Source: Escherichia phage PMBT16
Reading direction: 5' to 3' (one strand)
DNA length: 64,000 nt
Sequence record: PP554575
Both the position numbers and the translations under genes were made by a program. Within the stretch, counting starts at the first letter, position 1. The number at the start of each line of letters is the position of its first letter. The notes below the pieces were generated by a model. That model had not been told where the DNA came from. It saw only the letters and a list, made by a program, of their open reading frames with translations, and made no database searches. Of the stretch, positions 28,527 through 39,250 are shown piece after piece.

Positions 28527-28742
28527 TCAGTCCAGTGGTTCATCACCTACTTCACTGAAATCAATGTTCATGGTCTCCTCCCAACCATCAATCTCAGCAC
28601 CAGAGTAGAGATCTTTAGGACTTACTCCCAAAGCATCAGCAACAGAGTCCATATTTAACACCTCTGGCAGGTATGATTCATCGAATTCAAGGTAAATCAG
28701 GCCACGAGTATTGTCAGCTCCACCAAATATTTCTATCTTCAT
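28527..28742 (-). CDS. hypothetical small acidic protein (71 aa)
   Basis: ORF track; last gene of minus-strand block. Confidence 0.6.
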   Translation of the reverse strand: MKIEIFGGADNTRGLIYLEFDESYLPEVLNMDSVADALGVSPKDLYSGAEIDGWEETMNIDFSEVGDEPLD

Positions 28743-28863
28743 GAAATCTCCTCTGGAAATGAGAGTGTGAACTGGGTTTTATACGTTCCAATGCACAGGA
28801 ATTATGCACGTTTGCCTCTTCAGGCCATGCTTTAGCATGAGGAACCTGTGTGGGCTCGGTGCT

Positions 28864-29076
28864 TCATAGTCTACCACCCCTGAACTCTTCGTGCTCAGGC
28901 ATAATAGAGAACCAGATGTCTACGATGTCCTCCCACGTCAGGTCATCAGCCTCAGGGTCTACCTGGTACGGAGATGGAGAATCTTCAGAATCGAAGTTTT
29001 CCTCTTTCCCCGGCTCGGCCAAGGGACAGATGGTCACTCCTTCGGATGTCTCTTCAGATGCATGTGTGTTGATCAT
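28864..29076 (-). CDS. hypothetical small acidic protein (70 aa)
   Basis: ORF track; GGTGGA RBS. Confidence 0.55.
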   Translation of the reverse strand: MINTHASEETSEGVTICPLAEPGKEENFDSEDSPSPYQVDPEADDLTWEDIVDIWFSIMPEHEEFRGGRL

Positions 29077-29174
29077 GTTCCACCCGTGAGTATTCCGGCA
29101 ACAGCCGCTATGGACGTAATGATCATCAGGATCACCACTAAAACTTCGGACAATGTTCTCATTGTGTACTCCAT
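29073..29174 (-). CDS. small hydrophobic peptide (33 aa)
   Basis: ATG just downstream of minus-strand promoter; TM-like LVVILMIITSIAAVAGIL; no clear RBS. Confidence 0.3.
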   Translation of the reverse strand: MEYTMRTLSEVLVVILMIITSIAAVAGILTGGT

Positions 29175-29194
29175 ATTCTACAAACTATGTGTGG

Positions 29195-29223
29195 ATACTA
29201 TCACTGGATCGGTAATGTGTCAA
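29195..29223 (-). promoter_or_regulatory. sigma70-like promoter (TTGACA-N17-TAGTAT) on minus strand
   Basis: Consensus hexamers read on reverse complement. Confidence 0.55.
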
Positions 29224-29381
29224 CAGAAACGCCGCGAGGGTTTGGTTAAAATCCGAGCGTATGGTGATTTGGGTCAAAACGAACGTGCGTTCTCGCTACG
29301 CTCGAAATATGGAGTTGTTTGTAGGGAGCTCTTAAACGCTCTGTAATGAGATTAACTACCCAAGGTATGCAATCGTGCACC

Positions 29382-29411
29382 AGATAAAGAAAAGGACGCC
29401 ACAGAGCGTCC
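29382..29411 (-). terminator. rho-independent terminator on minus strand (GGACGC-TCTGTG-GCGTCC + TTTTCTTTATCT)
   Basis: 6-bp stem followed by T-run in minus-strand sense, after gene ending at 29437. Confidence 0.6.
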
Positions 29412-29436
29412 TAGGTGTCTTAAATTTGATATTTTG

Positions 29437-29736
29437 CTATACCCACGAGGGCTTATCAAGGTTGGAGTAGCTGAAAGGTGTCAAAAGGTGACTGTCAAAA
29501 TCTCTCAAACTATCCAAATCTTTTTCCTCGTCCTGACACCATCTGTGCCTACATTTGTTGTTGTAGTGCATGGAATGCATAGCGTTCTGCAACTTAACAG
29601 GCACAAGTGATTCAGGAGTAGATAGTATTGTTGGGTATGCCAGAACCACCTCAAACAGTGGAAACACATCGAAACTAAAGTCTACCTCTGCAGAGGTTGA
29701 TGGCATATAGGAGTATTTAGCCGCCTTTGTAGACAT
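29437..29736 (-). CDS. hypothetical protein (99 aa)
   Basis: ATG with GAGGTGG RBS; track start is GTG four codons upstream. Confidence 0.55.
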   Translation of the reverse strand: MSTKAAKYSYMPSTSAEVDFSFDVFPLFEVVLAYPTILSTPESLVPVKLQNAMHSMHYNNKCRHRWCQDEEKDLDSLRDFDSHLLTPFSYSNLDKPSWV

Positions 29737-29744
29737 AATCCACC

Positions 29745-36675: not shown

Positions 36676-36959
36676 TTTCTAGTCCCCTTCTTAGATTTTT
36701 GTGTAGAAACGCTTTCTGCAATACGAGACAAACGTTCTTCTGAAGCCTTGCCTATTCCAGGTTTTTTGAGTGGGTTATCTTTATGACCACAATCCAATTG
36801 GATATTGGATACCTCCCCAACCTTGTAAGTCAATTCTAGCAAAAGGTTGTCGTCCTTGTCAAATGTTCTTACGATAAATTTTTTATCGTTCTCCTGAACT
36901 TCGTATCGGGTACCCGCAGTATACAGCATGGTGCCATCCGCATAGGATATCCAGATCAT
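36672..36959 (-). CDS. hypothetical protein (95 aa)
   Basis: ORF track. Confidence 0.55.
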   Translation of the reverse strand: MIWISYADGTMLYTAGTRYEVQENDKKFIVRTFDKDDNLLLELTYKVGEVSNIQLDCGHKDNPLKKPGIGKASEERLSRIAESVSTQKSKKGTRK

Positions 36960-37303
36960 TGAACCTCCTTCTGCTGCAACAGCATTAACTCTTTGTTGGA
37001 GATTTTTACTGCTGTTTTTATTGTTCCATCTTCACGAAACCACGACCAGAACTCTACAGTGTCCCCACTGTCAAGCAAAGCATACCCGTGGTAGAAGTCT
37101 TTGTCCTTAGACAGTTTCTCATCTATGTCTGCATCGACACATTCGTGATCCATAGCATTTTGCCTGAATGCATCGGTTATACCAATGCACGCCTTGCTCT
37201 CAAGACTGGTATATCCGATATCTTTTAATTCAGTTTCCCAAGTCCAGTACCCTATAAAAGCTAAAACAGCTACCCACATTAATAACGTTTTAATCTTTGG
37301 CAT
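36956..37303 (-). CDS. membrane-anchored/secreted protein (115 aa)
   Basis: Hydrophobic N-terminus; ORF track. Confidence 0.6.
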   Translation of the reverse strand: MPKIKTLLMWVAVLAFIGYWTWETELKDIGYTSLESKACIGITDAFRQNAMDHECVDADIDEKLSKDKDFYHGYALLDSGDTVEFWSWFREDGTIKTAVKISNKELMLLQQKEVQ

Positions 37304-37365
37304 TCTCTCTACCTCTTTCTTAGTTTATTTCACTATGGCACATCCTTTGTGCCATATCTCAACCA

Positions 37366-37827
37366 CTACTTAAATAGTAGTCCAAAATAGTGCAAAATTA
37401 ACAGAAGTTGAACTACACCTAGTGCAACGGCGAGTATGTTAATCTTAGAATCGAAAAACTTCTTAACTTTTACTCTAAAAGGTTCCTTAATGTCCTTTAC
37501 GATCCTATTTATAGATGATTTCATATCCCTGATTACCATCCTAAACATTAGAGACGGATCTTCCTTCTCTGTAATAGAATCGAAAACATACTCTCTTCGG
37601 TCATAAGGACCTCCAGATCTGCGTATTAACCTCTCCACAGAGACCTCGTACGACACACCTGTAACGTAATCATCTATGATAAGTAGTGACGGGTCTTTAT
37701 CGTCCAAGGGTATTAAAGTTATCTTTCCAGATTTTGTTAAAATTTCTCCTTTTTCAAGCAAGGTGTACCAATGCTCTCTACCAAGATTGTTGAGGCACGT
37801 TTTTACATATTTAACAAACATCGTCAC
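37366..37827 (-). CDS. hypothetical protein with C-terminal TM segment (153 aa)
   Basis: ORF track; C-terminal hydrophobic stretch. Confidence 0.6.
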   Translation of the reverse strand: MTMFVKYVKTCLNNLGREHWYTLLEKGEILTKSGKITLIPLDDKDPSLLIIDDYVTGVSYEVSVERLIRRSGGPYDRREYVFDSITEKEDPSLMFRMVIRDMKSSINRIVKDIKEPFRVKVKKFFDSKINILAVALGVVQLLLILHYFGLLFK

Positions 37828-38009
37828 CCCTCATCGCACGTCTGATATAACCACTCTATGAAATCTTGATACCATTCGCCCTCTGAGCGCTCCGTAGGCC
37901 AATAATCTTCACCCTCTCGTGCATTAAAATCTGAGTATTCAACTTTCCACTCCTTTACCAGCTCGTGGAGAAGGTTTTCAGCCTGCTCTAAAGATTTATT
38001 TTTTGCCAT
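37824..38009 (-). CDS. hypothetical acidic protein (61 aa)
   Basis: ATG with AAGGAG RBS; track start is six codons upstream. Confidence 0.5.
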   Translation of the reverse strand: MAKNKSLEQAENLLHELVKEWKVEYSDFNAREGEDYWPTERSEGEWYQDFIEWLYQTCDEG

Positions 38010-38092
38010 TGCTGTCTCCTTTTTCAAGATAGTTATACATCAGAACTGCACCACCTAAGATGGCTACCAGTAACAATATCCCAGATAGCATC

Positions 38093-38245
38093 TCAATAAA
38101 CATGGCTTGAAACACTGGAAGGTCTCCCTAAATTAACGCACCATTTTAAATACATGCTCTTTTCCCATAAAGGTGCCTGGCTAAGATCTGCGTAGAACGC
38201 AATCTCTTTAAGAACAGTATAGATAGTTTTAGGTGCGGTCTCCAT
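38093..38245 (-). CDS. hypothetical small protein (50 aa)
   Basis: Internal ATG of ORF 38093-38281 with AGGAAGGAGAG RBS. Confidence 0.4.
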   Translation of the reverse strand: METAPKTIYTVLKEIAFYADLSQAPLWEKSMYLKWCVNLGRPSSVSSHVY

Positions 38246-38456
38246 CCCTACTCTCCTTCCTGATATTCTTGTAGTAATCAACTAGGCACATTATTACGAT
38301 GAAGATAACAACAGGCCAAAAAGGTGCAGCAGTGATGATGGTGATAAAATCATCAAACTTCACCCTTCGTCTGGACACGATGCATACACCTGTCAAGAAT
38401 ACCGCTGTTATAACGGACATTACCAGGTAACCTATTAGCACAACATTTATACTCAT
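38229..38456 (-). CDS. small membrane protein, two TM segments (75 aa)
   Basis: ORF track; two hydrophobic stretches. Confidence 0.6.
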   Translation of the reverse strand: MSINVVLIGYLVMSVITAVFLTGVCIVSRRRVKFDDFITIITAAPFWPVVIFIVIMCLVDYYKNIRKESRDGDRT

Positions 38457-38486
38457 TGGTCCTCCCTTTGTAGGTTAAATTGTATA

Positions 38487-39020
38487 CTACAAATGGTCGC
38501 TGAGGGTGTCAAGAAAATTATCCCGTTCTTTCTCAGAGTTTTCATGTGTGTAGCTGAAAAACATATCGAGAATAACCTTATTGATATATTCCAGCTCCTC
38601 TGTGTTCAGATGCTTAGCAGGATCTACAATGACATCCCAAATATCATACAGACCACACTCATGATACCCATAACGCCACTCAATTGTCAAGCTGAGCGGC
38701 AAATCTTTACCTTCACAAACAACCTTCCATCTACATATGTTGGTATCTGGTCGTACCTGTGCACGGTACACCTGCACAAAATCCAATTTGAATTTGAGGT
38801 ACTCGTCATACAATTTAAGCACAAAGCTCTCGATTTGTGGAGACACTTTTGCAGCAAACTGTGCGTATTTGTACTTGCACTGGATGATCTTTCTGCGTTT
38901 TGCAGTTAAATTTTTTGCCGCCAGTTGTTCTTCAGTGTATCTCCACCTACGATCAACAAACGCAACAGGGTCTTTGTCCCCATAGAGGTCTTCCCAGTTA
39001 ATCAGAAGCATACCTGTCAC
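38487..39020 (-). CDS. hypothetical protein (177 aa)
   Basis: ORF track. Confidence 0.65.
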   Translation of the reverse strand: MTGMLLINWEDLYGDKDPVAFVDRRWRYTEEQLAAKNLTAKRRKIIQCKYKYAQFAAKVSPQIESFVLKLYDEYLKFKLDFVQVYRAQVRPDTNICRWKVVCEGKDLPLSLTIEWRYGYHECGLYDIWDVIVDPAKHLNTEELEYINKVILDMFFSYTHENSEKERDNFLDTLSDHL

Positions 39021-39250
39021 TCCTCCACAACTTCAAGGCCTTTACCGCCTCGCTCTGGCAGATTACTTAAAGATAGGTAATACATATAATCAGGAGAGAT
39101 CCTGCCAGACTCTGCACCTGCAGCTAGTAAATCCTTCCCTTTAACCAGGACAACATTCTCGTTTGCAGATAGCCGTTTTGCTTCCACAATTTTACCAACA
39201 CAGTCAACCAAGGAAGGGTACCCTAAATCTGTAAGAAATTTAACTTTCAT
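39017..39250 (-). CDS. hypothetical small protein, DL(I/L)AAGA family (77 aa)
   Basis: ORF track; KGKDLLAAGAESG motif. Confidence 0.6.
   Translation of the reverse strand: MKVKFLTDLGYPSLVDCVGKIVEAKRLSANENVVLVKGKDLLAAGAESGRISPDYMYYLSLSNLPERGGKGLEVVEE

Follow-up and report, generated by a model that had tools for sequence, protein, structure and literature searches.

What do the many small genes crowded onto one strand of an Escherichia phage genome encode, and why are there so many of them? The question arises from Escherichia phage PMBT16 (sequence record PP554575), of which we analysed a stretch of 64,000 nucleotides (nt), hereafter the window; the genes at issue lie at positions 28527-39250, and each is named below by its lower coordinate. 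An earlier note, made from the sequence alone, had described this array as more than 20 consecutive minus-strand genes for small, mostly acidic proteins. The description holds: we counted 30 non-overlapping minus-strand open reading frames (ORFs) of at least 50 amino acids (aa), with a median length of 95 aa and 28 of the 30 between 60 and 135 aa, and 19 of the 30 products (63%) have an isoelectric point (pI) below 5.5. The feature that sets the region apart is paralogy, not acidity. The median pI is 4.77 in the array and 5.63 among the other small proteins of the same phage (Mann-Whitney p = 0.13); by contrast, 12 of the 30 genes belong to three families, here called A (five members), B (two) and C (five), and seven of the nine paralog pairs detectable by BLAST in the window lie inside the array. 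With roughly even confidence, we read the array as a set of accessory small-protein binders directed against strain-specific host factors and expanded by duplication. These are real genes, kept by purifying selection; phage growth on E. coli K-12 does not depend on them, whereas four are required on a uropathogenic isolate according to published data.

Three families of small paralogous proteins

The earlier note had singled out 35135, 35379 and 39017 as one paralog set and 32522 and 34724 as another, and both sets stand (Table 1). A profile built from the first three genes recovered two more, 33254-33517 at 24.2 bits and 32917-33276 at 19.6 bits, against a maximum of 14.0 bits in 6200 shuffled controls; a six-frame profile scan of the whole window gave exactly five matches, the members of family A. 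The junction sequence places the true start of the 32917 gene at an ATG giving MKVRFIG (110 aa, 32917-33249), which fits the family A N-terminus, and 33254 matches phrog_5009 weakly (1.2e-4). The family has a conserved strand-helix motif of its own, G-x-D-L-I-x-A-G-A. The two members of family B are 28% identical over their full length. Family C is newly recognised here: starting from 31834 and 32185, iterative profiles recruited 31218 and 31505, for which 2-3 of 10200 decoys scored as high, and then 33609, for which no decoy did.

Sequence and profile comparisons of the small proteins thus showed significant paralogy for 12 genes in three families, and no further array protein joined A or C by hhalign. 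Two candidates, 28527 and 39288, were rejected, only their first 5-7 N-terminal residues being aligned. The shared N-termini that had been noticed by eye, MK(I/V)(E/K)(I/L), are enriched: starts of the form M(M)K[IV][EK][ILVF] occur in 7 of the 30 array ORFs and in 2 of the 89 other ORFs of the window (Fisher p = 0.0009), and family A or C members account for six of the seven. The acidic C-terminal tails EIVEL, EIVEE and EEEDE are all present, as are VVEE and EDENEG.

The PHROGs database already groups 35135, 35379 and 39017 (phrog_5009) and also 32522 and 34724 (phrog_7379), both with function unknown. It splits the rest, placing 33254 in phrog_13920, 32917 in phrog_13661 and the five C members in five separate families, and it records neither the wider relationships within A and C nor a fold. 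Pfam, NCBIfam and PDB sequence searches gave no match for any A, B or C member, and the A and C profiles found nothing better than E = 0.13 among PDB sequences.

Families B and C are restricted to this genus in the phage collection and large protein database that we searched. A word-indexed protein search with the B alignment returned only near-identical orthologs, and searches with family C returned orthologs alone, so that neither family yielded a deep alignment. For family A, an exhaustive HMMER search with the profile gave 31 representative clusters, nearly all of proteins of 63-90 aa. One cluster, P0027, is a protein of 264 aa in which three family A modules in tandem are joined to a C-terminal domain; because the module is repeated there, it is an autonomous domain. 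Homologs are found in the temperate coliphages mEp021, mEp013 and mEp554, where they lie between Q and the lysis genes and include homologs of 39017, and in 12 viral contigs of 6-66 kb, three of which hold tandem copies. Their neighbours in the contigs are RecT, exonuclease and methylase genes plus integrase, or primase or DNA polymerase genes. On one contig (L012), a 219-aa ORF (7557-8216) matches the A profile and is followed by another, single-domain copy. Species-representative bacterial genomes contain only two family A loci, in Providencia and Moellerella, and a word-indexed protein search with 39017 returned near-identical orthologs only. The paper on the mEp phages (PMC11893012) and a daunorubicin paper (PMC13250531) say nothing on these genes. 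Elsewhere in the window, a 427-aa minus-strand protein (62101-63384) matches the A profile weakly (E = 0.02), which may reflect an embedded SH3-like domain or chance.

Predicted fold and a probable common origin of families A and C

AlphaFold models were confident for both A and C. The family A model (35379, from a 31-sequence alignment) had a predicted local distance difference test score (pLDDT) of 94.5 and a predicted template modelling score (pTM) of 0.82; for family C (33609, 20 sequences) the values were 91.7 and 0.71. In the A model, strands at residues 2-6, 22-27 and 34-38 are followed by a helix at 39-44 and strands at 57-62 and 66-71. The C model has strands at 2-5 and 22-27, three helices within 30-60, and strands at 66-69, 76-79 and 84-88. 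Both families are thus predicted to form a single-domain, SH3-like barrel of five strands with about 70 core residues, and the modelled barrels superpose on SH3, KOW or PsaE domains. The earlier note had allowed that predicted structures might turn out unrelated; for these two families they share one barrel.

The modelled fold places A and C in a class with SH3, KOW/Spt5, PsaE and the retroviral integrase C-terminal domain. The two families differ from these in having no Pfam, NCBIfam or PDB sequence match, and C differs further by a three-helix insertion between strands 2 and 3. Within a viral structure library, every neighbour of A is an uncharacterised protein of about 60-90 aa; these come from enterobacterial phages, T4-like and T5-like ones among them, and the best reach a template modelling score (TM-score) of 0.85-0.90 with 24% identity. 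Small phage proteins with an SH3-like fold and no assigned function are a kind already known, and families A, B and C themselves are uncharacterised. We also considered Gp54 of phage Bas11 (PDB 9axb), a small beta-barrel that triggers the defence protein CapRel(SJ46). It is unlike A and C in having six strands, a different topology and no sequence similarity, and in being a trigger of defence rather than an inhibitor; similarity to 9axb was at the background level for the fold class, not close.

The strand order is the same in the A and C models, down to nearly the same residues for the first two strands, and the inserts of C and of the A members 35135, 33254 and 32917 all lie at one site, between strands 2 and 3. 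A full-length profile comparison of A with C aligned only the N-terminal hairpin (E = 0.021, probability 2%), and searches with hidden Markov models (HMMs) against sequences gave no cross matches between A and C. Because the inserts of both families share this site, we cut that of C out of the C alignment, its limits (residues 29-63 in 33609) being set by the structure. The insert-free C profile then matched A with a probability of 87.5% (P = 3.6e-6, scores 26-30) over strands 1-3 only, whereas 240 column shuffles of the A alignment reached a maximum of 15.3 and a median of 8.5. Given this alignment and the identical strand order, it is probable, rather than proven, that A and C share an origin and make up one superfamily of ten members.

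Gene organisation, duplication and selection

The window comes from an rV5-like Vequintavirus. About 120 genomes of rV5-like Vequintavirus phages match the 11.2-kb region at 97-99% identity, the best being that of Escherichia phage WalterGehring/Bas51 (98.8%), and at least 80% of the region is covered in 115 of 122 related records. All coding in the region is on the minus strand, in agreement with a GC-skew switch near 28 kb. Where the array is taken to begin and end is arbitrary, small hypothetical genes carrying on past both ends, and the Bas51 annotation of the same region lists 39 coding sequences, tiny ORFs included. Nearly all of the region's genes are called 'hypothetical protein' in related records, apart from a ribosome hibernation factor, a 'putative glycosidase', a 'transcriptional regulator' and a 'virion structural protein'. 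In the rV5 genome paper the genes lie at the far end of a long transcription unit, ORF82-163, beside a non-coding box, and the paralogs go unmentioned (PMC3606486).

At both of its places in the array, family B lies immediately downstream of a family A gene. In the first triplet, 35379 (A), 35135 (A) and 34724 (B), the gaps are -11 and +12 nt; in the second, 33254 (A), 32917 (A) and 32522 (B), a 4-nt gap is followed by a TAATG overlap, so that the genes are translationally coupled. Duplication of a strict A-A-B segment is unsupported, since 35379 and 35135 are each other's closest relatives. They form the closest family A pair (Smith-Waterman z = 24), which points to a local tandem duplication. 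The B-adjacent A genes 35135 and 32917 also match well (z = 9.9), which favours duplication of an A-to-B pair over that of a whole triplet; only the pairs 35135-34724 and 32917-32522 are counterparts. Identity is 25-40% between paralogs and 90-100% between orthologs, so the duplications long predate the radiation of the genus.

The earlier note had proposed examining the ratio of nonsynonymous to synonymous change (dN/dS) across related phages. Calculated as pN/pS against five relatives, it was 0.14 for A, 0.12 for C and 0.06 for B, compared with 0.05 for the hibernation factor (HPF), 0.02 for a methyltransferase and 0.04 for ClpP. All three families are therefore under purifying selection that is somewhat relaxed.

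Natural deletions are concentrated in part of the array. The stretch 28.0-34.8 kb is collinear in all five relatives, and 34.8-39.0 kb is a hot spot of insertion and deletion. Phage Bas59 lacks window 34810-38614, and as a result the C-terminus of the B gene 34724 is fused to an N-terminal portion of the 38487 gene, the two sharing an overlap of about 15 nt; a different segment, 35948-37791, is missing from Bas54, and V18 carries three deletions of smaller size. Loss or frameshift affects several members in some relatives (V18, Bas59 and rV5 gp148). Bas59 and Bas54 are viable, so the deleted genes are dispensable on a permissive laboratory host.

Requirement for array genes on a clinical isolate

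A preprint reports transposon sequencing (Tn-seq) of phage Bas54 (MaxBurger, MZ501093) by a method called HIDEN-SEQ (10.1101/2025.11.20.689424). The proteins of the Bas54 array share 86-100% identity with their counterparts in the window; for the members of A, B and C the range is 90-100%. On E. coli K-12, every Bas54 array gene is non-essential or intermediate. On the clinical isolate, by contrast, insertions in five array genes were strongly depleted (q ~0 for each): 0152 (33254, family A) with a log2 fold change (log2FC) of -7.16, 0150 (32522, B) with -6.77 and zero reads left, 0151 (32917, A) with -6.17, 0140 (the ortholog of 29437-29736) with -5.48, and 0157 (34724, B) with -2.14. The family C ortholog 0153 (33609) had a log2FC of -2.78 that was not significant. 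The HPF ortholog is non-essential and was not depleted (10.1101/2025.11.20.689424).

The preprint follows up two knockouts (0063 and 0140) and two systems of the uropathogenic strain CFE311, DS-28 and Gao_Tmn, and identifies bas54_0140 as one of two genes needed against DS-28, a predicted defence system (10.1101/2025.11.20.689424). Its text is silent on 0150-0152 and 0157, for which our values come from the deposited resampling table. In Extended Data Table 8 (Data S6/S7), the numbers on the sheet comparing K-12 with CFE303 are identical to those on the CFE311 sheet, and the command line names '311'; for these two reasons we attribute the data to CFE311. The CFE303 comparison appears to be missing from the deposited file.

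Proposed function of the array proteins

On the reading that we favour, the array is the distal end of this phage's long leftward transcription unit, an accessory block read from host-type sigma-70 promoters, in which duplication expanded three families of small proteins. These small, mostly acidic proteins would bind strain-variable host proteins stoichiometrically and so neutralise them; the likeliest targets are components of anti-phage defence. Divergence after duplication, concentrated in the insert and the loops, would let the families reach more targets, and A may work with B as a two-protein module. The accessory and counter-defence clusters of large lytic coliphages that HIDEN-SEQ mapped, among them T4 early genes including dmd, acb1 and adfN and the T5 pre-early genes, resemble the array in their dense small genes, host-type promoters, dispensability on K-12 and single genes that are essential on defence-carrying hosts. 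The bas54_0140 ortholog is one array gene validated in the same way. The array is unlike those clusters in that 12 of its 30 genes are paralogs of three families with no known target. A bolder version, which we offer only tentatively, holds that A and C are a single unrecognised superfamily of SH3-like mini-binders with an MKxKL start, that they form A-to-B modules with family B, and that these modules constitute a new class of counter-defence or host-range determinant, which rV5-like phages would need for growth on uropathogenic E. coli carrying some defence function; the variable insert between strands 2 and 3 would be the specificity element, diversifying from paralog to paralog.

The earlier note had taken tandem expansion of small acidic proteins as a hallmark of host-interaction or anti-defence loci. 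The expansion is real and, at 12 genes, larger than had been described, and bas54_0140 together with the four conditionally essential orthologs lends support to the functional part. Several points weigh against it, and against our reading. The defence link of A, B and C is putative, no target or defence system being paired with any member, and family C and three A members (35135, 35379 and 39017) are without a Tn-seq phenotype on the one clinical strain (10.1101/2025.11.20.689424). Insertions in 0152 and 0151 may owe their depletion to a polar effect on 0150, which lies downstream and is coupled to them. Gene-wide pN/pS across the five relatives shows no diversifying selection or arms race. 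A search of other phages found no B-like gene downstream of their A genes, and A-to-B adjacency was not seen outside this genus. Acidity is not distinctive of the array within this phage, early timing is deduced from promoter matches only, and the A and C models were compared by strand order and insert site.

We consider it possible, although doubtful, that only family B matters on the clinical strain, that the depletion of A genes is a polar artefact and that A and C have another, possibly redundant, role. Such an account fits the tight spacing of 33254, 32917 and 32522, the depletion of both B paralogs (0150 and 0157) and the neutrality of 0158 and 0159, the A genes that precede the second B copy. 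However, insertions in 0158 and 0159 are neutral despite the depleted 0157 just downstream, which argues that polarity is not general in the array, and the authors of the preprint themselves argue against widespread polar effects (10.1101/2025.11.20.689424).

An unlikely alternative is that the barrels are general host-takeover factors that bind RNA polymerase, the ribosome or nucleoid proteins and, alongside the HPF homolog and the phrog_639 regulator of the same array, redirect transcription or translation; the machinery bound would be conserved housekeeping machinery, and defence systems would not be what they counter.

Improbable, in our view, is a role as DNA mimics of the Ocr or ArdA type that block restriction enzymes or other DNA-binding defence proteins. 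Ocr (T7 gp0.3) and ArdA are likewise small, strongly acidic phage proteins from an accessory gene region, and most A and C members have a pI of 4.05-5.4 and acidic C-terminal tails. However, Ocr and ArdA are elongated helical dimers, whereas the array proteins are predicted to be compact beta-barrels, and their acidity is no greater than that of other small proteins of the phage. The BASEL study also argues against an Ocr-like role: it reports Vequintavirinae as 'exceptionally susceptible' to restriction-modification (RM) systems, apparently with no effective means of protection (PMC8594841).

That the array consists of decaying or spurious ORFs, functionless relics of duplication, is very improbable: members have been lost or frameshifted in several relatives, as described above, but the low pN/pS (0.06-0.14) comes with abundant synonymous change, at least 80% of the region is kept in 115 of 122 related genomes, the A and C models are confidently folded, and four members are conditionally essential by Tn-seq on the clinical isolate.

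The HPF/YfiA fold is beta-alpha-beta-beta-beta-alpha. The earlier note had speculated that some array members might be divergent proteins with this fold, given the HPF homolog among them, which in the phage collection is confined to this genus. For families A and C, an identity as ribosome-binding paralogs of this factor can be dismissed: adjacency and a similar N-terminus (MQIEITGN as against MKIEI or MKVEI) are all that link them to HPF, no A, B or C member matches PF02482 (Ribosomal_S30AE) at E up to 0.1, hhalign of HPF against the A and C profiles gives a probability of 0.2%, and the models are SH3-like beta-barrels, not the HPF alpha/beta fold. The shared MKIEI-type N-terminus corresponds to beta-strand 1, which begins at the initiator methionine.

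Other features of the array and its surroundings

The coordinates of the family members and other features are collected in Table 1.

Table 1. Genes and regulatory features of the array, in window coordinates
Coordinates	Strand	Feature	Evidence
39017..39250	-	Family A, 77 aa, canonical short form; ortholog bas54_0166	phrog_5009 8e-36; hhalign to A profile 99.6%
35379..35606	-	Family A, 74-75 aa, modelled protein; ortholog bas54_0159	phrog_5009 1e-36; BLASTP to 39017 2e-6
35135..35389	-	Family A, 84 aa, 19-aa insert between strands 2 and 3; ortholog bas54_0158	BLASTP to 35379 8e-15; phrog_5009 4e-32
33254..33517	-	Family A, 87 aa, insert between strands 2 and 3; ortholog bas54_0152	core profile 24.2 bits; hhalign 98.7%
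32917..33249	-	Family A, 110 aa, two inserts; ortholog bas54_0151	core profile 19.6 bits, above all shuffles; hhalign 98.7%
34724..35122	-	Family B, 123-132 aa, directly downstream of A pair 35379/35135; ortholog bas54_0157	phrog_7379 5e-74; BLASTP 7e-10 to 32522
32522..32917	-	Family B, 131 aa, translationally coupled (TAATG) to A gene 32917-33249; ortholog bas54_0150	phrog_7379 2e-66; junction sequence
33609..33878	-	Family C, 89 aa, modelled protein; ortholog bas54_0153	iterative profile, no decoy as high
32185..32445	-	Family C, 85-86 aa; ortholog bas54_0149	BLASTP 4e-4 to 31834; hhalign to C profile 99.6%
31834..32184	-	Family C, 116 aa, C-terminal acidic helical extension; ortholog bas54_0148	BLASTP 4e-4 to 32185; profile; hhalign
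31505..31834	-	Family C, 109 aa, N-terminal extension; ortholog bas54_0147	2-3/10200 decoys as high; hhalign 99.3%
31218..31505	-	Family C, 95 aa; ortholog bas54_0146	iterative profile; hhalign
34016..34333	-	Ribosome hibernation factor (HPF/RaiA) homolog; unrelated to A, B or C	PF02482 1.8e-12
29437..29736	-	Singleton, 99 aa; ortholog of bas54_0140	98/99 identical to bas54_0140; phrog_12072; no Pfam match
30124..30429	-	Singleton, annotated transcriptional regulator	phrog_639 1e-21
37366..37827	-	Singleton, 153 aa; rV5 ortholog abundant in virions	phrog_7821; rV5 proteomics 'gp133'
28527..28742	-	Singleton, 71 aa, pI 4.05, MKIEIFG start only	not assignable to A or C; hhalign aligns 5-7 N-terminal residues
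34381..34409	-	Sigma-70-like promoter upstream of HPF; P144 of the rV5 record	TTGACA-17-TATCAT, 11/12 matches; annotated in NC_011041
32475..32503	-	Sigma-70-like promoter; P150 in rV5	TTGACA-17-AATAAT, extended -10; annotated in NC_011041
29393..29412	-	Strong intrinsic-terminator-like hairpin downstream of 29437-29736	8-bp stem, 5 G-C pairs, then TTTCTTT

Minus-strand, sigma-70-like promoters with a perfect TTGACA occur inside the array. One of them, P150, is located between the family B gene 32522 and the family C gene 32185, and is bracketed by an inverted repeat, CACACAGG/CCTGTGTG, that spans its -35 element (window 32446-32521). The repeat may act as an operator; alternatively, a terminator and a promoter may overlap here, where the A-A-B operon gives way to the family C run. 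Neither the array nor the gap next to it gave a match in Rfam and tRNA scans. The singleton 37366-37827 is absent from the viable phages Bas54 and Bas59 and may be a dispensable packaged protein, perhaps an injected one.

Between the plus-strand arm and the array lies a repeat-rich non-coding gap of about 2 kb (window 26500-28500). The motif ATAGTTGCC(Y)TG occurs there in both orientations (26665-26856), together with two perfect repeats, a direct one of 20 nt (26681 and 26955) and an inverted one of 18 nt (26714 and 26848). The equivalent gap in Bas54 has no tolerated insertions in HIDEN-SEQ (10.1101/2025.11.20.689424), and the gap may act as a replication origin or in regulation. Beside it, on the plus-strand arm, the contiguous small Bas54 genes 0123-0134 (about window 20000-26900) were depleted on the clinical isolate, with log2FC of -2 to -5, several of them significantly; they may form a second host-specific accessory block or reflect a regional effect.

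Two more pairs of small-protein paralogs lie elsewhere in the window, 7113-7340(+) with 44167-44403(-) (BLASTP 1.5e-4) and 7990-8244(+) with 8248-8568(+) (2e-5). Among database records, 18 MG0656xx entries with the name 'Campylobacter phage' and Campylobacter jejuni as host match the rV5-like region at 95% identity or more, which suggests contamination or a wrongly assigned host.

Implications for rV5-like phages

The rV5-like phages are among the coliphages most often isolated and are candidates for therapy and biocontrol, and about two-thirds of their genes are without an assigned function. Our analysis gathers twelve 'hypothetical' genes into three families, probably two superfamilies, with a predicted fold for ten of the proteins. 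It also ties four of the genes to a strain-specific requirement that is recorded in a deposited table and goes undiscussed in the text of the preprint (10.1101/2025.11.20.689424). If the reading of the array as a set of binders against strain-specific host factors is true, it could lead to a new family of anti-defence proteins together with its target, and thereby help explain what limits the host range of these phages. Should the specificity element prove to be the insert between strands 2 and 3, the barrels would be a natural case of diversification by scaffold and variable loop in phage counter-defence.

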